Assembly: GCA_964551475.1 (NCBI GenBank)
Contig: CAZKCI010000023.1
Location: 7,289 to 71,288 of the forward strand
Length of the DNA stretch: 64,000 nt
Direction of reading: 5' to 3'
Source of the DNA: an uncultured bacterium
Lineage (GTDB): Bacteria > Auribacterota > Erginobacteria > Erginobacterales > CAZKCI01
The notes beneath the pieces were generated by a model. It was not told the origin of the DNA. It saw only the letters and a list, made by a program, of their open reading frames with translations, and made no database searches. The translations under genes were made by a program, and so were the position numbers. How positions within the stretch are numbered: the first letter of the stretch is position 1; each line of letters begins with the position of its first letter. Below, piece by piece: positions 22,211 to 37,140 of the stretch.

Positions 22211-23722
22211 TCAGTTTGATTTCATGCATCTGCTCACCCTCACCCTCTCCCCCTTCCGCACCGGCACGGGGGAATGGGGCCGTTCCCCCTCGCCCGCTTT
22301 CATCCCCAGATCGCGCGCCGTCCTTGAGGTCATCCCGACGACCAGCGCAAACAGGAAGGCATTGGCCGGGATATGAAAGTTGAAATCCATGAAGCTGTGG
22401 ACGATGAGCGCGGTGGCGGAGGCGTATCCCCCGACGAGGAGGAAACGGCGGCTCAGGGGGCCGGGAAGAAGGGTCGGGGGGCGGCGGGACGACTTCCGCC
22501 CGGGCAGGAAGTCGGGATGGAGCGAGCGCAGCGGCAGGTAGAAGGAGAGCAGAGCGGCGAGGACGATAAGCAGGCCGATCATCCCCGTCTCCACGGCGAG
22601 CTGGAGATAGTCGTTCTCGGCGAAGGGGTAATCGTAGCGGGTGGAGAAGGACTTGTAGCGGCCGATCCCGTGCCCCTCCGGGTTGTAGACGAAAGCGAAG
22701 GTGTTGAGTCCCGTCCCGAGAAGGGGGTAGTCGCGGACGATCTCGATCGAATCGGACCAGACGCGCAGGCGGTGGGGGGGGGCCTTTCCGGTCGGGTGCA
22801 GGCGTTCGAGAAGCTGGTCCCAGCCGAAATAGGTGAAGGCGGTGAGGAAGAAAAGGAGGAGGACGAGGAGGGCCTGAACGATCGCCCGGGTGCGGGCGAG
22901 GCGCAACCGGCGGCAGAGTAAGGCGAAGAGGCCGAGGGAAAGGAGAAAAGAGAGGATCCCGCCCCGGGAGACGGTGAGAAAAAGGGCGAGGGCCATGATC
23001 AGAATCATGAAGACCATCAGCGCCTGGACCGGATCGAAGCCGGAGGGCGAGCGGCGGCGGGGCCCCTTGTGGAGACGGTCGGAGAGGAAGAGGGACAGGG
23101 AGAGGGGGATGACCATGGCGATGAAACCGGCAAAATGGTTGCGGTTGACGAAGGGGCCGAAGGGATGCGCCCGGGGGTCGCTCACCTTCCGGATCCAGTA
23201 GAGCTTCCCGGACCAGCTGAACTTCTGGATGATCCCGAAGAGGGAGAGGACGAAGCCGAAGGCGGTGAGGACGAGGATCATCCGGGTGAAAACGGAGAGA
23301 GATTCGGCGTCGTCCGCCTCCGCGACCGCGAGAAAGACGGCCAGGCAGGCGATGAGGCGCATGAGCTCGGCGAGCGTCGCGGCGGGGCGGGAGGAGAGAG
23401 GACGCCAGCTGCCGGCGCCCTCGTTCCCGCCGGCGGGGGCAGAGGCGGAATGGAAAAGATCGTTCAGAGCGGGAGGCAGAGGAAGAAGCTGAAACAAGAC
23501 CAGAAGAAAAAAGAGGCCCAGGCAGACGCCCAGGGGGGAGGCGAGCGACGGAAAACGGAGAGACCCCGCCCGCGCCTTGGACCAGAGGAGAAGAGCGAAG
23601 AGAACGGCGGCGCCAAGGTTGAGGACCGCGGAAGACCAGCCTTCGACGCCCCCGAAAGCCAGGGCGCCGAAGGCGACCAGGAGGAGAGCGCCCCAGGAAA
23701 TCAAGGAAGCGAGCGATGTCAT
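22211..23722 (-). CDS. O-antigen ligase domain (Wzy_C) membrane protein
   Basis: Start MTSLASLISWG...; multi-TM; motif FAENDYLQLAVETGMIGLLIVL matches the Wzy_C consensus; ATGA overlap with the upstream giant gene; the listed 999-aa ORF is a spurious 5' extension. Confidence 0.7.
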   Translation of the reverse strand: MTSLASLISWGALLLVAFGALAFGGVEGWSSAVLNLGAAVLFALLLWSKARAGSLRFPSLASPLGVCLGLFFLLVLFQLLPLPPALNDLFHSASAPAGGNEGAGSWRPLSSRPAATLAELMRLIACLAVFLAVAEADDAESLSVFTRMILVLTAFGFVLSLFGIIQKFSWSGKLYWIRKVSDPRAHPFGPFVNRNHFAGFIAMVIPLSLSLFLSDRLHKGPRRRSPSGFDPVQALMVFMILIMALALFLTVSRGGILSFLLSLGLFALLCRRLRLARTRAIVQALLVLLLFFLTAFTYFGWDQLLERLHPTGKAPPHRLRVWSDSIEIVRDYPLLGTGLNTFAFVYNPEGHGIGRYKSFSTRYDYPFAENDYLQLAVETGMIGLLIVLAALLSFYLPLRSLHPDFLPGRKSSRRPPTLLPGPLSRRFLLVGGYASATALIVHSFMDFNFHIPANAFLFALVVGMTSRTARDLGMKAGEGERPHSPVPVRKGERVRVSRCMKSN

Positions 23723-26700
23723 CCGGTCCCCTCGCGCGGCTGCGAGACGATGGAGAGGAGAAGGAATATCAGAAGGGTCGCCATCAGATGAGGCGCATAG
23801 GACGGGCGGGACCGGGGAGCGAGAAAAGGACGGAGGATGTCGTCGGGACGGGCGGGGAGGCGCACAGGCGCCGGGGCTTTCGTAGGCGCCCAGAGGTCCT
23901 CCAGTCCCCGCGGATCGGAGCGAATCCGGTCCCATTGGCCGAGAAGCGAAGCGGCGGGGAAGATGCGGATGGCGGGGTCGAAGGAAACAGAAGACTCGCG
24001 CAGAAGCCCCCAGTAGTAAAACTCGTTCTCGAAGAGGGAGGGCAGATAGCTCAGATAGGAGGGCGTCCGGAAGAGATCGCCGGAGGAACGGCGGGCGACC
24101 TCGCTGATCTCGTAGTATTCCTTCCGGGTATAGAACCAGGATCCGTGGGCGAGCTCGATGTAGTCGGAATACATCATCGCTCCCGGGGGTTCCTGGGCGG
24201 CCGACGCCGACAGGTCGTCCCAGGAGGCAGCCGGGCGGAGATCGGGCCAGGGGGACAGATCCTGGCAGATCAGCGTCGCCACTCCGTGGGGGATGAAATG
24301 TATCCAGGCCCAGGCTTTGACCCGGTCCGGCGCCCAGCGGGCGAGGCGAAAGGTCTCGAGCCTCCCCCAGTGGCTGAGAAGCAGGATAAGCATCAGAGCG
24401 CCGATCGCCCAGCGAAAAGGACGCCAGCGGCGGACGAGATCGCGGGCGGCGGCGGCCATGATGACGACGAGCGGTATCCAGGCCGGGAAGTAATGGCGGA
24501 TGACCTGCGCTGCCCCCGTATACGTGACGGCGACGGCGGCGCCGAAGAAGAGGGCGAGCAGAAATCCGAGGCCCTCCGGCAAGCGGCGGCGGCGGACGGC
24601 CCCAGCCGCCCAGATGAGGGACGAGATGGCCGCCGCGGTCGCCAGGGGTCCTTCGGAGACGAAAAGGTAGCGCCAGAAAAACCAAAAATCCACCGGCAGC
24701 GCCCGGGCGTGGAGGAGGTTGTCCCGGAAGGTGGCGGCGAGGATGCGGTGATAGGGGACATAGGAGCTTCCGACCGTGCGGGTGGAAAGGAAGCTCAAGA
24801 CCTCCCAGCCGAGCCAGACCGCGGCCGCTCCGCCGAGCAGGGCGATTCCGCCGACAACAATTTCTCTCCGGCGCGGCCCCCGGAACAGCCTCAGGATGCG
24901 CCAGACGCCGTCCACGGCGAGCAGGCAGAAACCCGGCCAGAGGTCGGACGAGCTGAAGAAGAGGCTGGCCCCGACGAGAAGGCCGGCGGCGAGGAAACGC
25001 CGGGGGCGGCCGGAGGACCGGGCGGCAAGGTAGGCCCAGAGGGCGAGGGCGAACCAGAGCCCGCCCCCGGTGGCATGGATCCCCCAGGTGGAGTAGGTCA
25101 CGGCCCAGGGGGAGATCGCCCAAAGAAAGGCGGCGACCAATCCTGCCGCGCGGCCGGCGGCCCGCCGTCCCAGGCCGTAGATCAGGAGGACCGTGATCAG
25201 CCCCTTGCAACAGGTCCAGAACTGGATCGTCCGGGCCGAGGACCCCAGCAGGTAGTCGAGGAGACAGCGCTCCAGGAGGAAGAACGGCTTGGCCATCGAG
25301 GTGACGGTCTTGTTCACGTCGAGCTGGGTGAGGTGGACGGCGAGGATGAAGGGAGAGGCGATCCCCCGGCCTTGGAAGAGCGGGAAGGTCCTACCCTTCT
25401 CCACATAGGTCCGGTATTCGGCGTCGTCGCCGCCCATCTGGGAGAAGCGTTTCAACCCGTGGAAACGGAAGACGGCGGCCACGGCCAGAACGAGAGCGAG
25501 AACGATGACCAACCGCGCGGCCTGGAGCCCCCGGACAAGTTCGGACGGCGCGGGCGCGGAGAGGAAGAGGACGAGGAGACCGAGGGCGAGAAGGGCCAAG
25601 AACGGCGGCCAAGCGCCCCGGAAGGGGAAGACCGCGAAACGGACGAAAGACCAGTAGATGTTCGTCCCCCGAGCCCCGTCTTCGTGGACCCATTTGACCG
25701 TGACCGCGTCGGCCGGACGGGGAGGATGGGCGCGAAAGGCGAGGACCGCCGCGACCGGGATGACCCGCAGGTCGGGGTCGAAAACCTCCTTCCTCTGGCG
25801 CACGAATCCCCAGTAGTAGTCCTCGTTCTCGTAAAGAAAGGAGGGGTCGGAGAGGTGGGTGCCGGCGCGGAAGGCCTCCCCCTCGATCGCCCGGCAGGAC
25901 TGGGCGATCTGGAACATCTCGAGGGGATAATCCCAGATCCCCCGGGTGATGGCCAGGTAGTCGCCATAGACCAGGTAGAGCGGGCCTTGCGCCTTCTCCC
26001 TCTGGGCAAGCTCGGACCAGCTGTGGAATCGAGGAACCTCCGGCCAGAGAGCGGCGGGCTGATTGGCGGGGGCGAGGACGCGACCGGCGGGAGCGTTTTC
26101 ACTCATCCAGGCGGCGAGGCGGAAAGCGCCCTGTCGGCTGTACCGGTAGACGAGAAGACTTTTCCCCGAGAAAAGGAGGGCGGCGAGGAGCAGGAGGGCA
26201 AGAATCGCCCCCCGGACGAAGCGGCGGGAACCGGAGAAAAGGACCCTCCCCTTGAGCCAGGAGGCGGCCAGCCCCCCGATCGGCGCCAGGGCGAGCGACC
26301 AGGCGAAGACATAGTGGCGGGCGCACTGGGTCGAACCCGACCAGGTGGCGGCGGAGATCGAAGCGAGGGAGGCGGCGAGGAGAGCAAGCAGGGGGAAACG
26401 ATCGGAACGGTCCGTTCGGAACACCGCCCGGACGGTCCAGATCAGCGAGACAATCCAGAGAATGAGCTGGGGCCGGCCTTCGGTGGCGTGGATCAGACGA
26501 AGCCAGAAAAGATGATCGATCGGAAGCAGGCTGGCGTGAAAAGCGTTGTCCTCCGCGGTCTGGGCGAAGCCGGCCCAGAAGGGACGGTACGGAACCGCCA
26601 GGATCCGGGACTGGATGAGACCGAGCGCCTCCCAGAGAAGAGGGAGAAGGAGGAAACCGAAGAGGAGCGTGAGACAGCCGCGGAGCGCTTTCCGGCCGGG

Positions 26701-27426
26701 CGGGCGGGCGGCAGACCGCGCGTCCCCCTGGTAGCCGCAGGCTTGAGCCTGCGCTCCCTCCAGCCACCGGCGGATCGCGGCCAGGCCGAGAACGGCGACC
26801 GCCGGCCAGATCACGGTCGGATTGGCCAGAACCGCCGCCCCGAGGCAAATCCCGACCAGCAGGGGAATAAAGCGCAGAGCGACAAGACCACGGAAGGCGA
26901 GAAGGAGGAAGAGGAGGCTGTCCATGGTGGGTATGCCGTATGTGCTGTAGCGGGTGAGCCAGGGGGAGACGGCGGCGAGGGAGGCGGCGATCAGGCCGGC
27001 CGCCGATCCGAAGAGGCGGCGGCCGATGGAGAAGACGACCAGAACGACGGCAAGACCGGAGATCGCCAGCGACCACTGCTGGCGGTACAGGGTCAGACCG
27101 ACCGCGCCTTCGATCGCCGAGAGCTTCAGCATATAGAGGGGCTTGGCCAGCGAGGTGAAGGCCATATCACGGTAGGAACGCCGGGCGAGGTCGTTGGCGA
27201 CCATGAAGGGGGAGAAGGCCCTGAACGCGAATGAGGAAGAGGGATGGCTCAGGCGCCAGGAGGAGTAGCCGTCGCGGACGCTGTTGAGATAGGAGGCGTC
27301 GTCACCCGGCGTGGGGCCGTAGGTGGAGAGATCGAAGAGGCGGACCAGTCCCGCCAGGGCGAGGATCAGCAGGAGGATCGCGCCGACGCTGACAGCTGAT
27401 TTTCTGGTCCTGGACGGAGAATTCAT
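23719..27426 (-). CDS. Giant (~1235 aa) membrane protein made of two tandem GT-C (ArnT/PMT-like) modules, each ending in a YENE(D/F)YYWG-containing soluble domain
   Basis: Two colinear modules, each with ~10 TM helices; a DD motif in the first loop (TPGDDASY / MGGDDAEY); shared ...MAKP(L/F)(Y/F)(M/L)L..., SPW(L/A)(T/V)(R/T)YSTWG, and C-terminal ...YLVYGDYLAI.../...MMYSDYIELAHG... and FLYENEDYYWGF/LFENEFYYWGL; start set at internal ATG 27426 (MNSPSRTRK... then TM). Confidence 0.6.
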   Translation of the reverse strand: MNSPSRTRKSAVSVGAILLLILALAGLVRLFDLSTYGPTPGDDASYLNSVRDGYSSWRLSHPSSSFAFRAFSPFMVANDLARRSYRDMAFTSLAKPLYMLKLSAIEGAVGLTLYRQQWSLAISGLAVVLVVFSIGRRLFGSAAGLIAASLAAVSPWLTRYSTYGIPTMDSLLFLLLAFRGLVALRFIPLLVGICLGAAVLANPTVIWPAVAVLGLAAIRRWLEGAQAQACGYQGDARSAARPPGRKALRGCLTLLFGFLLLPLLWEALGLIQSRILAVPYRPFWAGFAQTAEDNAFHASLLPIDHLFWLRLIHATEGRPQLILWIVSLIWTVRAVFRTDRSDRFPLLALLAASLASISAATWSGSTQCARHYVFAWSLALAPIGGLAASWLKGRVLFSGSRRFVRGAILALLLLAALLFSGKSLLVYRYSRQGAFRLAAWMSENAPAGRVLAPANQPAALWPEVPRFHSWSELAQREKAQGPLYLVYGDYLAITRGIWDYPLEMFQIAQSCRAIEGEAFRAGTHLSDPSFLYENEDYYWGFVRQRKEVFDPDLRVIPVAAVLAFRAHPPRPADAVTVKWVHEDGARGTNIYWSFVRFAVFPFRGAWPPFLALLALGLLVLFLSAPAPSELVRGLQAARLVIVLALVLAVAAVFRFHGLKRFSQMGGDDAEYRTYVEKGRTFPLFQGRGIASPFILAVHLTQLDVNKTVTSMAKPFFLLERCLLDYLLGSSARTIQFWTCCKGLITVLLIYGLGRRAAGRAAGLVAAFLWAISPWAVTYSTWGIHATGGGLWFALALWAYLAARSSGRPRRFLAAGLLVGASLFFSSSDLWPGFCLLAVDGVWRILRLFRGPRRREIVVGGIALLGGAAAVWLGWEVLSFLSTRTVGSSYVPYHRILAATFRDNLLHARALPVDFWFFWRYLFVSEGPLATAAAISSLIWAAGAVRRRRLPEGLGFLLALFFGAAVAVTYTGAAQVIRHYFPAWIPLVVIMAAAARDLVRRWRPFRWAIGALMLILLLSHWGRLETFRLARWAPDRVKAWAWIHFIPHGVATLICQDLSPWPDLRPAASWDDLSASAAQEPPGAMMYSDYIELAHGSWFYTRKEYYEISEVARRSSGDLFRTPSYLSYLPSLFENEFYYWGLLRESSVSFDPAIRIFPAASLLGQWDRIRSDPRGLEDLWAPTKAPAPVRLPARPDDILRPFLAPRSRPSYAPHLMATLLIFLLLSIVSQPREGTG

Positions 27427-27508
27427 CGAGGGGAAAGCTCTGCCATCAACCTGCGTTCTCATAGAGAATAACCGATCGGGAGAGGAGAAAACAGGGGAAA
27501 CCCCGCAA

Positions 27509-27531
27509 AATGAATGTCCTCCGGACATTCA
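27509..27531. promoter_or_regulatory. Perfect 10-bp inverted repeat (ATGAATGTCC-tcc-GGACATTCAT) in AT-richer divergent promoter region
   Basis: Lies in the ~210-nt gap between the giant minus-strand GT-C gene (start ~27426) and the plus-strand sulfatase-like gene (27637); followed by tgaaatgatgaaatatatatgcaatattaag. Confidence 0.5.
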
Positions 27532-29227: not shown

Positions 29228-31321
29228 TCACCCCAGCATTTCCAGCTCGCCCAGGGAATAGAAATAGTGCGCGGAACCTTGATGACCGTCAGAGATGAGC
29301 AACTGGTAGTAACGGAAAGCCTGATCGTTGTCGAATGTCCAAGAATAGCTTTGGCCCTCGACGGGCGGATCGTCTTGGGCCACGGGCGCCAGCAGATTCC
29401 AGGTTTTCCCGTCCTGACTCGCCAGGAGCTGGGCCAGGCGGAAAAATTGCTCGGGGTGCCCGCGCCGCGGCCGGGCCGTCAGCGACCGGATCACCCGGGC
29501 CCGACCGGCGCCGAAATCGACCGTCACCCAGGCGGTTTGCCCGATTTTATCCATCGCCACGTGCCAGAAGGTATCCGGGTCCTCATCCCGCAGGTTCTCG
29601 ACCTCTCCCCCCCCGGAGCTTTCGGACGAGGCCTCCAGCGATACCCCGGGGACGAGAAGCCGGTTCCTTGCCTCCGGGGGACGGAGTTCCAGTTCCTTGA
29701 AGAGCCAGAGCGCGCGGACGGGGAAGCGCGGACGCAGCGCCTCGAGCAACGTAGTCTCCCACCGCCGATGCCACGCTTCGGCGACGAGGGCTCGGGAGAC
29801 CGTTTCCCCGGTCATCTCTTTCGCCTCATTCGGGAAGTAATGTGGGTAGCCGTAGACATCCGATCTCCCATGATTCGCCAGCGCCGCTTGGTTGATGAAG
29901 CGGAAGTTCGGAATCGAGATGATGAGCAAACCGACGAGGAGGCACCGGTTCAGGGTCGCGAAAGGCTCTTCCCGGATAGAAAACAACAGCGCGAACGGCA
30001 AGGTAACGAACAGGGAAAACAAGGCCCCGTAATAATAGGGTGTTTCGATCAGGCGCAGGTGTTTGGCCAGAATCGCCGTTTGGAAGATTATGAAAAGAAG
30101 CAGCACGGCGAGCGCGCGGAGAAATGCCTTTTTCGCCCAGGCGGGCAACTGAAAAAAAGCCGTCACGACATACACGAAGAGAAAGATGGCCGCGCCGGTA
30201 TAGACTTTCTGGACGTGCAGCGCCGCGCGGACAGGGGCCGGCATGATCAGGCTGCCCAGCAGATGGCGCCCGTTCGAGACGATGCTCCCGAACTTAAACT
30301 GCTGCCAGATATTGGAAGACTGGGCGTAGTGAGGCCTCCAGATGCACTGCCAGAACTGGAAATCGCCGAAACCGCATCCCTTGATCACCCGGGGAGCGAT
30401 CCACGTCACGAAGCATAAAAAGAAAACGAAAACCAGCGCATACCCGCACAGCGCCGCGATCATATTCTTCCTGGCGCTAAAGATATTCGGATAAAGGATC
30501 GGGATGCAGAAAAAGATGAACCAGGCCGTTTCGTCTAGAAAAAACGCGATGAATATGGTGGCGACGAGCCCCGCATAGGCGAGCGCGAGGCGCCGAGCGA
30601 TCCGATCCCCCTGTTTCGTGAAAGACCTGATCCTGGCGGCGAGGGCAAGGCCCGCGCGAAGGCACCCGCCGTCCGCCCCCGGCGGGGAGCCCCGAAGAAT
30701 GGCCGGCGAGAGCAGCGTCCACTGCAGCGCCTTTTTCCCGAAATATTCTTTCCGCGCGAGCAGGCGGTCGATGCGGGAAGACAGATACAGGCTCAGAATC
30801 GCCGCAAAGAGGGTCAACGGCTTGCCGGGGTGAAACAGCAGGGTAATCCCGGACAAAAAGCCGACCGAGAGGATATAGAGCGAGATCCCCGACCAGGCCG
30901 AGAGATGGCTGCGCGCGAAATTGCGCAGGAACTTGAAGAGCAGGAGAGGCGAGAGAATGAGAGTGAATATCCAGGTCAGGGAAAGGCTGGGATGCGGGGG
31001 AAAATACTCCCAGAGCCAAACGCGGAATTTCACATTGATGATCAGCACGGCATAGGATAAAAACCGGGCGCGGGCGATGGCGTCAAAGCTCCAGCAGTCG
31101 AAACCTCGCAACAAATCTCCCGGGACGAGGCGAGACCCGTTTCTAAAGGCATTGGGAATGCAGCGAGAGACGATCTCCGGATGGGTCCAATTGGCATTGT
31201 AGTTAAAAATAACGCCGAGAACATAGGCCAGGGCGAAAACGAAGATCGCCCGATAAATAAAAGCATCTCCCGGCCACGCGGCGAAGGGGCGGGGCCGGCC
31301 CACGGTTGCCTGCCGGCTCAT
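29228..31321 (-). CDS. Polytopic membrane protein with C-terminal F5/8 type C (discoidin) carbohydrate-binding domain
   Basis: ~14 TM helices over ~480 aa, then GGGEVENLRDEDPDTFWHVAMDKIGQTAWVTVDFG...TWNLL... resembling the discoidin-domain signature (DxDPxTxW). Confidence 0.6.
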   Translation of the reverse strand: MSRQATVGRPRPFAAWPGDAFIYRAIFVFALAYVLGVIFNYNANWTHPEIVSRCIPNAFRNGSRLVPGDLLRGFDCWSFDAIARARFLSYAVLIINVKFRVWLWEYFPPHPSLSLTWIFTLILSPLLLFKFLRNFARSHLSAWSGISLYILSVGFLSGITLLFHPGKPLTLFAAILSLYLSSRIDRLLARKEYFGKKALQWTLLSPAILRGSPPGADGGCLRAGLALAARIRSFTKQGDRIARRLALAYAGLVATIFIAFFLDETAWFIFFCIPILYPNIFSARKNMIAALCGYALVFVFFLCFVTWIAPRVIKGCGFGDFQFWQCIWRPHYAQSSNIWQQFKFGSIVSNGRHLLGSLIMPAPVRAALHVQKVYTGAAIFLFVYVVTAFFQLPAWAKKAFLRALAVLLLFIIFQTAILAKHLRLIETPYYYGALFSLFVTLPFALLFSIREEPFATLNRCLLVGLLIISIPNFRFINQAALANHGRSDVYGYPHYFPNEAKEMTGETVSRALVAEAWHRRWETTLLEALRPRFPVRALWLFKELELRPPEARNRLLVPGVSLEASSESSGGGEVENLRDEDPDTFWHVAMDKIGQTAWVTVDFGAGRARVIRSLTARPRRGHPEQFFRLAQLLASQDGKTWNLLAPVAQDDPPVEGQSYSWTFDNDQAFRYYQLLISDGHQGSAHYFYSLGELEMLG

Positions 31322-32031
31322 CGCGTCGCCTCGGGCTCTCGCCCCCGACGCAACTCTTTCCAGAACAGGCCCAGAAAAGCCGCGCCGGTCGGCAGCGAGC
31401 TGGATTTGCTCTTCCCGCCGATCCGGTCCCCCTCGATGGTGGGGATTTCCCCGACCCTCAGGCCCAGCTTCATCGCCCGGATGGACAGCTGATACTCAAT
31501 CAGGTAACCGTCCGCGTCCGGATGAAGGCGGGCAAAGGCCTCCTTGGTGATGGCCCGGTAGCCGTTGATGCTGTCGCTCAAACTTCCCTTCCAGGTTTTA
31601 TTGGCCGCCCAGGTGAACGCCTGATTCGCCCACTTGCGCCAGGGCCAGGCCGCCTCATCTTCCTCATTGCGGGAACCGGGTAAAAAGCGCGAGGCGATCG
31701 CCATGTCCGCGCCGTTCTGGAGCACGGAGAGGAGCCGCGGGATGTCGGCGGGGTCTTCGTTGCCGTCCGGGCTGAAGAAGACGATATGCTCGCCCGCCGC
31801 GCGATCGACCGCGATCCGGAACGCCTCCCCCCTTCCCTTTTTCTCCTGGGAAAATACGGGCACTCCCCGGCTCCGGAGAAACTCCGCCGTGCCGTCGGTG
31901 GAGCCCCCGTCCACTGTGATAACCTCGCCGACCAGCGCTACGGGGATCCGGTCGAACAGGGCCCGCACCCCCGCGATCTCGTCGTAGGTGAGGAAAACGA
32001 GGGTGCTCCTGACGTTTGGTCTCTTTTCCAT
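31318..32031 (-). CDS. GT2 polyprenyl-phosphate sugar synthase (DPM1/ArnC/GtrB-like)
   Basis: STLVFLTYDE...VITVDGGSTDGT...FFSPDGNEDP...IASRF; 4-nt overlap with the discoidin-membrane gene. Confidence 0.75.
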   Translation of the reverse strand: MEKRPNVRSTLVFLTYDEIAGVRALFDRIPVALVGEVITVDGGSTDGTAEFLRSRGVPVFSQEKKGRGEAFRIAVDRAAGEHIVFFSPDGNEDPADIPRLLSVLQNGADMAIASRFLPGSRNEEDEAAWPWRKWANQAFTWAANKTWKGSLSDSINGYRAITKEAFARLHPDADGYLIEYQLSIRAMKLGLRVGEIPTIEGDRIGGKSKSSSLPTGAAFLGLFWKELRRGREPEATR

Positions 32032-32059
32032 ATCAAGGGCGGCTCAGCGACATCGGGAT

Positions 32060-32126
32060 AAACGGTTCACGGTTCAACGGCTTACGGTGAGTTTGTCATT
32101 CCTCCAACCGTTAAACCTTTGAACCG
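32060..32126. repeat. GGTTCA-heptamer inverted repeat, family C, copy 3
   Basis: acggttcacggttcaacggcttacgg ... ccaaccgttaaacctttgaaccgg. Confidence 0.7.
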
Positions 32127-32127
32127 G

Positions 32128-33099
32128 CTATTGGGAATTGCGGCGATACCACTCGATCGTCCGCTGGAGCCCCTCCCGCAGGGAAACCGCGGCTTCGTAG
32201 CCGAGGAGGCTTTCGGCCTTGGCCGTGCTCGCCTGGCGGCGCATCTGCCCGGAGGGTCGCCGGGGGTCAAAAACGATACGGGGACTCTCCCCCGCGAGCT
32301 CGGCGATAAGCGCGATCAGCTCTTTGATCGTGATCTCTTCCTCGGCGCCGATATTGACCGGGTCGGCCTCGGGATACTTCTCCACGGCCAACAGCAATCC
32401 CCGGGCAACATCGGTCACATACACGAACGCCCGGCTCTGCTCGCCGTCGCCCCAGACCGTCAGAGGATCCTGTTTCTCCACCACTTTGCGGATCAACGCC
32501 GGGATGACATGGGAGCTTTCCCATTGGAAATTATCCCGCGGTCCATAGGCATTGTACGGCCGGGCGATGGCAATCCGCATCGGGTATTGGAGGGCGTAAC
32601 AGCGCCCCTGCGCTTCCGCCACCCGTTTCGCCCACCCGTAGCCCAGGTTGGTGGGTTCGGGGTCGGAAAGAAAACCCTCGTCCTCCGGCGTGGGGACGCT
32701 GGACTCCCGGGGATAGACGCAGGCCGAGCTCACGCAGAGATATCTCTCCACCCCACTGCGAACGGCGGCTTCCATCACGTTGGCGTTCATCACCACATTG
32801 GCGTAAAACAGCGCGCCCGGACGGGCGGCGTTGTAACCCACACCCCCGACGTGGGCGGCGAGGTGCAAGGCGCAGTCCATCCCGCGGCAAGCGCGCAGGC
32901 ATACGTCGAGATCGGAGAGGTCTCCCGGGCTGAAATCCACCTCCGCGAAGGAGGAGCCCAGGTGGCGGCGCGATTTCTCCTCCGAACCGTCGGCCACCCG
33001 CACCCGGGCGCCTTCCTGAAGCAGCATCTCCGTCAGGTGAGAGCCGATAAAACCTCCCCCGCCCGTCACCAGGACTTTTTTATCCTTCCAGAACGACAT
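32128..33099 (-). CDS. NAD-dependent epimerase/dehydratase (extended SDR; UDP-glucuronate decarboxylase/ArnA-C-terminal-like or 4-epimerase)
   Basis: KVLVTGGGGFIGSHL, YxxxK region VSSACVY...GYGWAK; start at internal ATG 33099 (MSFWKDKK), overlapping the stop of the upstream fusion gene by 1 nt. Confidence 0.75.
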   Translation of the reverse strand: MSFWKDKKVLVTGGGGFIGSHLTEMLLQEGARVRVADGSEEKSRRHLGSSFAEVDFSPGDLSDLDVCLRACRGMDCALHLAAHVGGVGYNAARPGALFYANVVMNANVMEAAVRSGVERYLCVSSACVYPRESSVPTPEDEGFLSDPEPTNLGYGWAKRVAEAQGRCYALQYPMRIAIARPYNAYGPRDNFQWESSHVIPALIRKVVEKQDPLTVWGDGEQSRAFVYVTDVARGLLLAVEKYPEADPVNIGAEEEITIKELIALIAELAGESPRIVFDPRRPSGQMRRQASTAKAESLLGYEAAVSLREGLQRTIEWYRRNSQ

Positions 33100-34988
33100 C
33101 AGTCGGCGGCTCCCGGGCGGCGGAACACCCTCCCTTTCCAGAGTTCCTTGACGAGTATGCCCACCATGTGAAAAACGGACCACGCTATTTTGTAGCCAAC
33201 GTCCTCGCGGGACTTGACCGATTCGCGGGTGGGGATTTCGATCACCTTCCACCCGGCTTCCATCGCCCGGATGGACATCTGGTAGTGGTAGCCCAGGCCG
33301 GAGGCATCAAGGCCGAGACGGGCCAGGCTCGCTTTTCTGACCGCGCGGAAGGTGTTCAGGGGGTCGGTGAGGTTGCCGTTAAAGAGGACATTGGCCAGCA
33401 GCGAGAAAAACCGGTTTCCCAGCCCCCGGAAGGGGATGGAGCGCCGATAGTCGCTTTTGTGCCCCCCGGGCATGAGCCGCGAGGCGATGACCAGGTCGTA
33501 TCCCTGGTCCAGCAGAAGCCGCAAGCGGTGGATGTCTTCCGGATCCTTGGACCCGTCCAGCTCGAAAAAGACGATGCCCTCGCCCGCAGCCAGCGCGGCG
33601 CCGGCCGGGAATGGGTCGGGGGCGACGGACACCGGGACTTTCTTCTCCTCCCAGAACTCCGGCGTCCCGTCGGAAGATCCCCGGTCGACCACCACAAGCT
33701 GATTGAACATCTCTCGGGGGATGGAATCGAAGACTTGGCGAGACAGATCGAGCGAGTCGAAGGTGGCGATGACCAGGGTGAAGTTCCGGGCGGCCTTCTC
33801 CCGCGGCCGCCCGGAGAAGTAGCTGTGGAAACGCCCGATCAGGTAATCCAGGTCCACCGAAGACAGGTCCTGGTGGCAGCCGACGTAGAAACCGCCCCGG
33901 TTGATCCAGTCCGCCGCCGGGTAATCCTTCGGATCGAGTCGGAACAGACGGCGGTAGACCGGCTGGGTGATCAGGGGGAACATCTCCCGGGTTTCCACCC
34001 CGTGCTCTTCCAGATAATTGACCAGATTCTCCTTGCTCTCCTCCCTGAGTACGATCGGATACATCATGAAGGAATGCTCGCACTCCGGCCGGATCGCCGG
34101 AAGCTGAATCCGGTCTTCGAGATCGCGCAACCCCTCGGTCAGATAGCGGGCGTTCCGGCGGCGGCGGGCGATCATCTCCTCCCAGGTTTCGAGCTGGGCC
34201 AGCCCCAGCGCCCCCTCCATCTCGGTGACCCGGTAGCTGTGCCCCAGGCTGACGAAAGAGAAGCGGCGGGCGACGATCATCCTCATCTCTTCCCGGGTCT
34301 TGTTTTCGTCGTCGTCGATGCTGATGTAGATGGAATCCCGCCCGTGGTTCAGCAACGAGCGCAGGGCGACGGCGCACTCGGGATCGTTGGTGGTGCACAG
34401 CCCCCCGACCCCGGTGACGATCAGGTGGGCCACGTAGGTGGAGAAACAGCCGATATCTCCCAGGCCGCCCACCCATCGACCCCGGTAGCGGGCGAACATG
34501 GTTTCGCAGGAGTCCTCGATCACGCCGAGCCGGCGGGAGCGGGCGATCTCGAGGATGGGATCCATCGCGCAGGGGAGGCCGAAGAGATGGACGGGGAGGA
34601 CGGCGCGCGTGCGGGGGGTGATCCGGGCTTCGATCCGGCTGGGGTCGATCCCGTAGTAGTCCTTCTCCACGTCCACGAAGACCGGTCGCAGATTGTTGTG
34701 GAGAACGCAGTTGGAGGTGGCGATGAAGGTGACCGCCGGGACGAGCACTTCGTCCCCGTCCCGCCAGCCGCGCTGCTCCTTGAGGGCGGCCAGCGCGATC
34801 GTGAGCGCGCTGGTCCCGCTGTTGGTCATCACCCCGAAACGGCAGCCGTGGAGGTGGGCGAATTTCTCCTCGAACCTCATGGTGAAGGGTCCGTAGGAGA
34901 GACGGTTGCTGCCCAGGACCTGGCGGACGTACTCCTTCGCCCGTTCGCTGACGGTGAGCGTGCCGACTTTTATGATCGGTGTTTCCAT
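33099..34988 (-). CDS. Fusion protein: DegT/DnrJ/EryC1/StrS-family PLP sugar aminotransferase (N-terminal ~400 aa) + GT2 polyprenyl-phosphate glycosyltransferase (C-terminal ~230 aa)
   Basis: N-terminal KEYVRQVLGSNRLSYGPFTMRFEEKFA...MTNSGTSAL...VIEDSCETM...(aminotransferase class V/DegT fold); C-terminal FTLVIATFD...VVVDRGSSDGT...FFELDGSKDPEDI...IASRL (DPM1/ArnC-like). Confidence 0.8.
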   Translation of the reverse strand: METPIIKVGTLTVSERAKEYVRQVLGSNRLSYGPFTMRFEEKFAHLHGCRFGVMTNSGTSALTIALAALKEQRGWRDGDEVLVPAVTFIATSNCVLHNNLRPVFVDVEKDYYGIDPSRIEARITPRTRAVLPVHLFGLPCAMDPILEIARSRRLGVIEDSCETMFARYRGRWVGGLGDIGCFSTYVAHLIVTGVGGLCTTNDPECAVALRSLLNHGRDSIYISIDDDENKTREEMRMIVARRFSFVSLGHSYRVTEMEGALGLAQLETWEEMIARRRRNARYLTEGLRDLEDRIQLPAIRPECEHSFMMYPIVLREESKENLVNYLEEHGVETREMFPLITQPVYRRLFRLDPKDYPAADWINRGGFYVGCHQDLSSVDLDYLIGRFHSYFSGRPREKAARNFTLVIATFDSLDLSRQVFDSIPREMFNQLVVVDRGSSDGTPEFWEEKKVPVSVAPDPFPAGAALAAGEGIVFFELDGSKDPEDIHRLRLLLDQGYDLVIASRLMPGGHKSDYRRSIPFRGLGNRFFSLLANVLFNGNLTDPLNTFRAVRKASLARLGLDASGLGYHYQMSIRAMEAGWKVIEIPTRESVKSREDVGYKIAWSVFHMVGILVKELWKGRVFRRPGAAD

Positions 34989-35157
34989 GCTAGAAAGCGA
35001 TGCTCGGTAACAGTAAAGAGTCAGAAAAAGAAGTTATGTATGACCGAAATGATTTCGTTCCCGTTCACATCCGCGTTCACGGAGACGCGACGGGTACGTG
35101 AACGTGTACGAGAACGTGAACGTTTACGTGTGCGCAAACGCGTAACCGTGCGTAACC

Positions 35158-37140
35158 TCACGTATCCTCATGTAACCTCTTTTTTCCCCGCAGGCACACC
35201 AGCGTATAGGCGAAGAGCACCGCGGAGGCGATAATCCCCGGCATGAGATACGAGGGCCTCTCCAGGCGGTCCATGAAGGGGAGGATGATCCGGTCCTTCC
35301 AAGCGGGGATGACCACCGGAGGGGGGCGGGACAAGCGCTCCTGAAGACGCCCCAGGGCGCCATCGTCCGAGCTGAGCTCCTGGTTGACGCGGAGCACCTC
35401 CCGGGCCGGGATGACCCTGATCCGGGGGTCAAAATCGGACGCGGGGCGGCGGTAGAGACCCCAGTAGTAGAACTCGTTCTCGTAGAGCATCGGCCGGTAG
35501 GAGAGATAGGAGGGGCAGGCGAAAGCGGTCGCCCGGCAGAGGCGGAAGGTCTCGGCCATCCCCAGTTGCTCCTTGGTGTGGTAGAACCAGGCGCCGTGGG
35601 CGATCCCGATGTAGTCGGAATACATGATGTAGGGTCGGTGGTGGGAGTTGATATAGGCGTCGAGCTCCTTCCAATCGTGGAAGAAGGACATGGTCGGCCA
35701 GAGGTCCCACTGCTGCATGTTCATCGTCGCCACCTGGCCCCGGAGCTGGTTGCGCTCTTCCCACAGACCATAGCGGTAGGGCCCCTGGCGGCTCAAACGA
35801 TAGTCCGACAGGCGAAAAAAGTTGAGCGCCGCCACGGCGACGGCCAGGGCGCAGAGAGGCCAGACCGCCCGGCGGAAACGGGAAAGAAGCGCGGAGACGC
35901 CGAGGCCCGTGATGACCGCGGCGAGAAGAAGGGCGGAGTAGTAGTGACGCGCCACCTGCGTCCCGCTGGTGTAGTTCATGATCACCGCCACTCCGATGAA
36001 GACCGCGGCCAGGCGAAGGCTCTCATCGTCCGCCGAATCTTTTCGGAGCAGGCGGACGAGAAGAAAGGCCAGCGCGGCGACGACCGCCACCAGGACCGGC
36101 CAGCCGTCGCTGTCCTTCAGGTGGCGGAAGAAGTAGAGGTGGTCGGCCGGAAGAGAGCCGGTGTGCGAGGCGTTGTCCTGGAAGGACTCCAGGAGGCGGC
36201 GGGGAAAAGGAACGTATCCGACCCGGGCAAAATCGATGGCGAAGGAGTCGGCGGAGGGGAATCGGCTGATCACCTCCCGGTTCTGGGCAAAAACTCGGAA
36301 CGAGGCGTAGTTCACCCCTTCCCAGGCGGCCAGGGGCAGGATGAAACCGAGGCTGAAGACGGCGAGGAGGAGGATCTGGCGGAGGGGACGGAAACGGCGG
36401 GCGGCGGCGACGAGGCGCCGGAGGAGCTCGAAGAGGCAGACGAAGAGAGCCGGCCAGACCAGGGAAATCGAGTAATAGACGGAGACGCCGAGAAAAACGC
36501 CGAAGCAGAGCGCGCGCAGGACGCTGTCGCGGCGGGTGGCGCCGGGAGCGGCCAGGAGGGCGAGGCAAAACCAGAGGCCGCCGCCCGCCGTGTGCAGGAC
36601 CCAGGTGGAGTAGCGGACCGCCCAGGGGGAGACCGCGAGCAACAAGGCGGCGGCGCAGCCGGCGGGGAAACCTCCCAGGCGACGGGCCAGGAAGAAGACG
36701 ACGAGCACGGTCGCCGTTCCCAGGACGGCCATCCAGATGTGCAGCCGCCGGATGTTCTCGTAGGGGTCGTTCGTGCGCAGATTAAAAACGGCGCTGACCA
36801 GGCCGATCTCCAGGATGAAGAGCGGCTTGGCGAAGGAGGTCACCTTCTTGTTGACATCCCAGTGGGAGAGATAAGCCGCGGCCAGAAAGGGCGCCTGGAA
36901 GCGGGGGAAATAGTATTTCTCCGCCCGCAGGATCTTCTCAAAGTTGTAGACGTGATCGGGGATGTGAACGCGGAACTCGACGTCGTCGCCCCCAACCTGG
37001 GAGAAATGCTCGAGCCCCCAGAAACGGAAAAGAGCGGCGAGAGCCACGCTGGCCAGGGGGACCAGCCAGCGCCAGCGGCGACGCGGAGAGAGGACAGCGG
37101 GGGAAGCAGCGGGGGGTGAGGCTGTGGCGGCGACGATCAT
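35158..37140 (-). CDS. GT-C fold membrane glycosyltransferase (ArnT/PMT-like) with C-terminal YENEFYYWG domain; paralogue of the two modules in 23719..27426
   Basis: GGDDVEF first-loop motif, FAKPLFILEIG, SPWAVRYSTW, C-terminal PYIMYSDYIGIAHGAWFYHTKE...LYENEFYYWGLYRRPASDFDPRIRVIP. Confidence 0.65.
   Translation of the reverse strand: MIVAATASPPAASPAVLSPRRRWRWLVPLASVALAALFRFWGLEHFSQVGGDDVEFRVHIPDHVYNFEKILRAEKYYFPRFQAPFLAAAYLSHWDVNKKVTSFAKPLFILEIGLVSAVFNLRTNDPYENIRRLHIWMAVLGTATVLVVFFLARRLGGFPAGCAAALLLAVSPWAVRYSTWVLHTAGGGLWFCLALLAAPGATRRDSVLRALCFGVFLGVSVYYSISLVWPALFVCLFELLRRLVAAARRFRPLRQILLLAVFSLGFILPLAAWEGVNYASFRVFAQNREVISRFPSADSFAIDFARVGYVPFPRRLLESFQDNASHTGSLPADHLYFFRHLKDSDGWPVLVAVVAALAFLLVRLLRKDSADDESLRLAAVFIGVAVIMNYTSGTQVARHYYSALLLAAVITGLGVSALLSRFRRAVWPLCALAVAVAALNFFRLSDYRLSRQGPYRYGLWEERNQLRGQVATMNMQQWDLWPTMSFFHDWKELDAYINSHHRPYIMYSDYIGIAHGAWFYHTKEQLGMAETFRLCRATAFACPSYLSYRPMLYENEFYYWGLYRRPASDFDPRIRVIPAREVLRVNQELSSDDGALGRLQERLSRPPPVVIPAWKDRIILPFMDRLERPSYLMPGIIASAVLFAYTLVCLRGKKRLHEDT

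Follow-up and report, generated by a model that had tools for sequence, protein, structure and literature searches.

Organization of the block and of its fusion gene

The window, that is, the whole stretch of 64,000 nucleotides analysed here, contains a translationally coupled block of five genes that runs from 37140 to 29228 on the minus strand. All open reading frames named in the first-pass annotation were located on this strand at the coordinates listed below, and every one of them has a coding-type GC3 of 0.74–0.86.

35158..37140, minus strand: first gene of the block, 660-aa polytopic GT-C-type glycosyltransferase, PMT_2-like
33099..34988, minus strand: 629-aa fusion, N-terminal ColD/E1-type (His188) DegT-fold domain and C-terminal degenerate DPMS-like GT2
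33813..34988, minus strand: DegT-fold domain of the fusion (aa 1–392), predicted PMP-dependent GDP-4-keto-6-deoxyhexose 3-dehydratase
34425..34427, minus strand: codon of His188, which stands where the PLP Schiff-base Lys is expected
33123..33782, minus strand: GT2-like domain of the fusion (aa 403–622), degenerate paralogue of the stand-alone GT2
32128..33099, minus strand: 323-aa extended SDR of Fcl/ColC type, predicted 3,5-epimerase/4-reductase of a GDP-4-keto-deoxyhexose
31318..32031, minus strand: 237-aa stand-alone DPMS/AglJ-like GT2 of the ‘SPDGNE’ subfamily, lacking a TM segment
29228..31321, minus strand: 697-aa GT-C-fold glycosyltransferase resembling ArnT and ALG12 in fold, its C terminus formed by a CBM32/F5-8 type C module

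The first gene ends 170 bp upstream of the fusion. Two junctions were read directly from the letters: the TGA of the fusion and the ATG of the SDR gene overlap by a single base (TG[A]TG at 33099), as the first-pass annotation had it, and the small GT2 gene is joined to 29228..31321 by an ATGA overlap. A Pfam domain search of the 629-aa protein, which had been described as a fusion of DegT and GT2 domains, returned both above threshold, with DegT_DnrJ_EryC1 at residues 15–385 (E=7e-96, 322 bits) and Glycos_transf_2 at residues 405–558 (E=2.7e-7, 31.1 bits; gathering cutoff 23.3). Residues 404–621 further match models for AglJ, for PpgS and for dolichyl-phosphate hexose transferase, as well as the Pyrococcus furiosus DPMS structure 5mlz (PfDPMS). 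A 173-kb JGI contig and an independent Logan assembly encode exactly the same protein, which has more than 120 full-length homologues spread over many phyla; the best 120 database matches are all 545–688 aa long and, in nearly all, query coverage is 93–100% at 50–81% identity. Hence a frameshift or assembly artefact is excluded, and the fusion is real and widely conserved. Its AF2 model (pLDDT 87.7, pTM 0.79) shows two folded domains, and the linker between them, residues 394–400, is of low confidence.

A 3-dehydratase signature in the DegT-fold half

The first-pass annotation took the N-terminal half for an ArnB-type sugar aminotransferase, and the active site contradicts this. Nucleotides 34422–34433 translate to VAHL, and the His of this motif, His188 of the fusion, aligns with K186 of perosamine synthase, with the catalytic H188 of Escherichia coli O55 ColD and with H220 of E1, where wild-type 3bcx reads ‘pahh’ and the H220K mutant 3bb8 reads ‘pakh’. 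This His is kept in 78 of 78 loci and in all 75 fusion proteins, and the residue before it is Ala as in E1, whereas perosamine synthase has Asn. The change from Lys to His is the key difference between sugar 3-dehydratases and aminotransferases; moreover, E1 and SpnQ carry a four-Cys [2Fe-2S] motif that is absent from ColD (PMC8987622). The fusion has an E1-type insertion after HGRD without the Fe-S cysteines, and the top NCBIfam model is RfbH/E1, at 237.6 bits, under its cutoff of 423. Because His188 is invariant and the Fe-S cysteines are missing, this half is predicted to be a PMP-dependent, ColD-like GDP-4-keto-6-deoxyhexose 3-dehydratase and not an aminotransferase.

The neighbouring SDR had been likened to the ArnA C-terminal domain and to UDP-GlcA decarboxylases (UXS), and here too the catalytic residues disagree. 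It carries S-A-C in place of the T/S-S-E decarboxylase motif of ArnA and UXS, and all five Fcl/ColC catalytic residues are present (equivalents of S107, C109, Y136, K140 and H179). In the PDB it matches GDP-L-fucose synthase and GDP-mannose 3,5-epimerase best; it shares 32% identity with E. coli Fcl and 27% with O55 ColC (E=2e-37), and it scores 191.7 bits against the GDPFucSynFcl model (cutoff 500) compared with 42.5 bits against ArnA. The segment after β2 contains Asp and is of NAD type, whereas Fcl has an Arg-rich NADPH segment, suggesting that this SDR may be something other than a plain NADPH reductase. A 4-reductase fits after a dehydratase and not after a 4-aminotransferase, so that the occurrence of an Fcl-family SDR within 3 kb in 41 of the 81 related loci favours the dehydratase reading.

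Gene neighbourhoods of relatives point to the nucleotide. In one locus (L055), an unfused dehydratase that is 63% identical to the DegT domain is immediately preceded by a genuine GDP-mannose 4,6-dehydratase (GMD; TIGR01472, 499.7 bits, cutoff 415) and followed by an Fcl-like SDR gene. A GMD gene is found less than 3 kb away in 12 of 49 unfused loci and in 2 of 32 fused ones, one locus (L025) having the order GMD, Fcl-like, fusion, Fcl and GT2. The substrate is thus likely a GDP-sugar rather than UDP-GlcA, which argues against an Arn-like amino-sugar pathway. Within the 64-kb window we found neither GMD nor mannose-1-phosphate guanylyltransferase.

Two GT2 domains and two GT-C genes

The 31318..32031 protein had been annotated as a second ArnC/DPM1-like GT2, which agrees with our matches to Glycos_transf_2 (E=5e-14), AglJ (93.6 bits), the dolichyl-P hexose transferase model (50.7 bits) and, as best PDB match, PfDPMS 5mlz (50.8 bits). 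Taking residue roles (metal-binding, A-loop, Dol-P-phosphate) from PMC5526996, we found equivalents of PfDPMS E12, D91, R117, R131, R202 and K208 all present, and the motifs are ∼100% conserved among 43 orthologues. Of 32 fused loci, 26 encode an orthologue on the same strand no more than 3 kb away. Gly occupies the position of the guanine-reading Asp39 of PfDPMS, and GDP specificity is therefore not readable from this sequence. The small GT2 is likely the catalytic transferase of the module and is predicted to be a polyprenyl-phosphate deoxyhexosyltransferase.

The fused GT2-like domain is 40% identical to this protein (E=3e-45). Across the 75 fusions its mean pairwise identity is 38%, compared with 67% for the DegT domain, and the equivalents of PfDPMS E12, Q93 and R202 on the donor side are lost. 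DxGSxDxT is intact in only 5 of 32 loci, and D478 is replaced by Asn or Thr in 15 of 75 proteins. In contrast, R504 (R117 of PfDPMS), R521 (R131) and N525 (S135) are invariant or nearly so, as are D542 and E584/E589. The domain is probably a scaffold or a lipid-phosphate/membrane-binding module. The copy in the window retains DRGSSDGT and D478, and residual activity of this copy is possible. The first-pass proposal that the fusion itself channels the sugar onto the lipid carrier is hence doubtful, since most fused GT2 domains have lost donor-site residues that the stand-alone GT2 keeps.

The GT-C assignment of the 660-aa protein (∼11 predicted TM segments) holds through a homologue and not through its own Pfam matches: PMT_2 (E=0.002) and STT3 (E=0.009) are both sub-threshold, and archaeal STT3 matches at E=6e-5. 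The two halves of a 1269-aa protein (23719–27528) align to it with 35% (E=1e-91) and 31% identity (E=3e-52), and residues 759–856 of that protein, within the aligned region, match PMT_2 above threshold at 37 bits. The CBM32/F5-8 type C module of the 697-aa protein spans approximately aa 560–697 (nucleotides 29228–29644). PMT_2 proteins adjoin the module in Gemmatimonadota, an uncultured bacterium, a deltaproteobacterium and Woesearchaeota, and in another locus (L089) an SDR, a GT2 and a homologue of the 29228–31321 membrane protein stand beside an E1-like dehydratase; of the fused loci, only around one in two has a large membrane protein nearby. Genes of Wzy, Wzz and GT4 type, as are usual in Wzx/Wzy assembly, also occur in the window.

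Proposed pathway and alternatives

The reading we favour for the fusion is a sugar 3-dehydratase of ColD/E1 type to which a degenerate copy of the adjoining lipid-sugar synthase is tethered. We give roughly even chances to a membrane-associated pathway in which the block would produce a 3,6-dideoxyhexose donor linked to a lipid, for use outside the cytoplasmic membrane, the route being from GDP-4-keto-6-deoxymannose to a GDP-3,6-dideoxyhexose, a polyprenyl-P-sugar and periplasmic glycosylation. GDP-4-keto-6-deoxy-D-mannose would come from a GMD encoded elsewhere. The N-terminal domain, whose residue signature is seen and whose chemistry is predicted, would remove the C3 hydroxyl by a ColD-like mechanism: a PMP ketimine forms, the 3-OH is expelled with His188 as acid/base, hydrolysis of the intermediate gives the 4-keto-3,6-dideoxy sugar, and an amino-acid donor regenerates PMP. 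The SDR may then epimerize and reduce at C4 to a GDP-3,6-dideoxy-L-hexose of putative colitose or ascarylose type. Homology and context suggest that the 237-aa GT2 loads this sugar on polyprenyl phosphate; a flippase, for which neither the window nor 81 related loci yielded a candidate, would carry it across the membrane, and the two flanking GT-C enzymes would pass it to a surface glycan or glycoprotein, which the CBM32 module could help by holding the acceptor glycan. The fused GT2-like half would serve as scaffold or membrane anchor that keeps the dimeric dehydratase beside the real transferase, most likely with no transfer catalysis of its own. The first-pass interpretation is partly supported, because its logic of nucleotide-sugar tailoring, transfer to polyprenyl phosphate by a DPM1/ArnC-type GT2 and use by an outside GT-C holds, GT-C genes recurring beside the module in unrelated phyla, and a glycan or glycoprotein target rather than lipid A is likewise supported.

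Its enzymology, in which an ArnB-like 4-aminotransferase, an ArnA-C/UXS-like SDR and a fused GT2 load an amino sugar directly, is very unlikely. The DegT fold, the structural match to ArnB (TM ∼0.92, 136 bits), the perosamine synthase (an aminotransferase) as closest solved relative, a UXS score slightly under that of Fcl for the SDR (136 versus 158 bits) and the in vitro transamination by His-type SpnQ when its reductase is absent (PMC8987622) are in its favour; these are opposed by the invariant His with its preceding Ala, the Fcl Cys/His epimerase pair, the GMD genes of relatives and the degenerate fused donor site. Moreover, a formyltransferase and a deformylase (ArnA-N/ArnD) were sought and not found in the window. 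That both GT2 modules are active, making different polyprenyl-P-sugars (e.g. intermediate and final) for one flanking GT-C each, is unlikely. The above-threshold Pfam match, the two GT-C genes, the conserved lipid-phosphate site and the D-x-GS-x-DGT motif with metal-binding Asp478, kept in the window unlike in most fusions, would suit it, yet equivalents of PfDPMS E12, Q93 and R202/K208 are absent from every fused domain including that of the window, the nucleotide motif is intact in few loci, D478 is replaced in 15 of 75 fusions, the fused domain is no better preserved where a stand-alone GT2 is not nearby, and Latescibacterota relatives manage with one GT2.

We also regard as quite unlikely an ordinary soluble deoxysugar pathway, in which dehydratase and SDR would supply a GDP-dideoxyhexose to Leloir transferases in the cytoplasm, with the small GT2 as a conventional transferase for an Und-PP-linked repeat unit and the GT-C genes adjacent by coincidence. 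Some unfused relatives (L052/L055) do have GMD, dehydratase and Fcl-like genes only, without a small GT2, the Wzy-, Wzz- and GT4-type genes fit, and chance adjacency is not negligible in a window with at least eight large GT-C-like proteins. However, the best matches of the small GT2 are all polyprenyl-phosphate monosaccharide synthases (AglJ, Dol-P hexose transferase, PpgS and PfDPMS), its Dol-P phosphate-binding arginines are kept, the ATGA overlap couples it to a GT-C-fold protein, and GT-C adjacency is seen again in at least four unrelated lineages and in L089. Highly improbable, finally, is tailoring on the lipid, in which the small GT2 would load a 4-keto-6-deoxy (or other) hexose and the fusion would bind the glycolipid and present its sugar to the dehydratase. 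The fused domain does keep R504, R521 and N525 at the acceptor/phosphate site while losing nucleotide-side residues, and there is precedent for modification at the lipid-linked stage (PMC11127046); nevertheless, the 63%-identical stand-alone enzymes in GMD/Fcl operons without GT2 favour the same nucleotide-sugar substrate for the fusion, and the Fcl-type SDR belongs to a nucleotide-sugar enzyme family.

Comparison with known systems

Tailoring on the lipid would resemble ArnD, DprE1/E2 and the Citrobacter ORF13 epimerase, enzymes that act on lipid-linked sugars, and the likeness of the SDR to ArnA and UXS is at superfamily level only. As a whole, the DegT domain is nearer to GDP-perosamine synthase (209 bits) than to E1 (182 bits) or ColD (144 bits), which counts against the dehydratase reading. 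With E1 it shares the His and the insertion after HGRD, without the cysteines of E1; with ColD it shares the His and, likewise, the lack of Fe-S cysteines.

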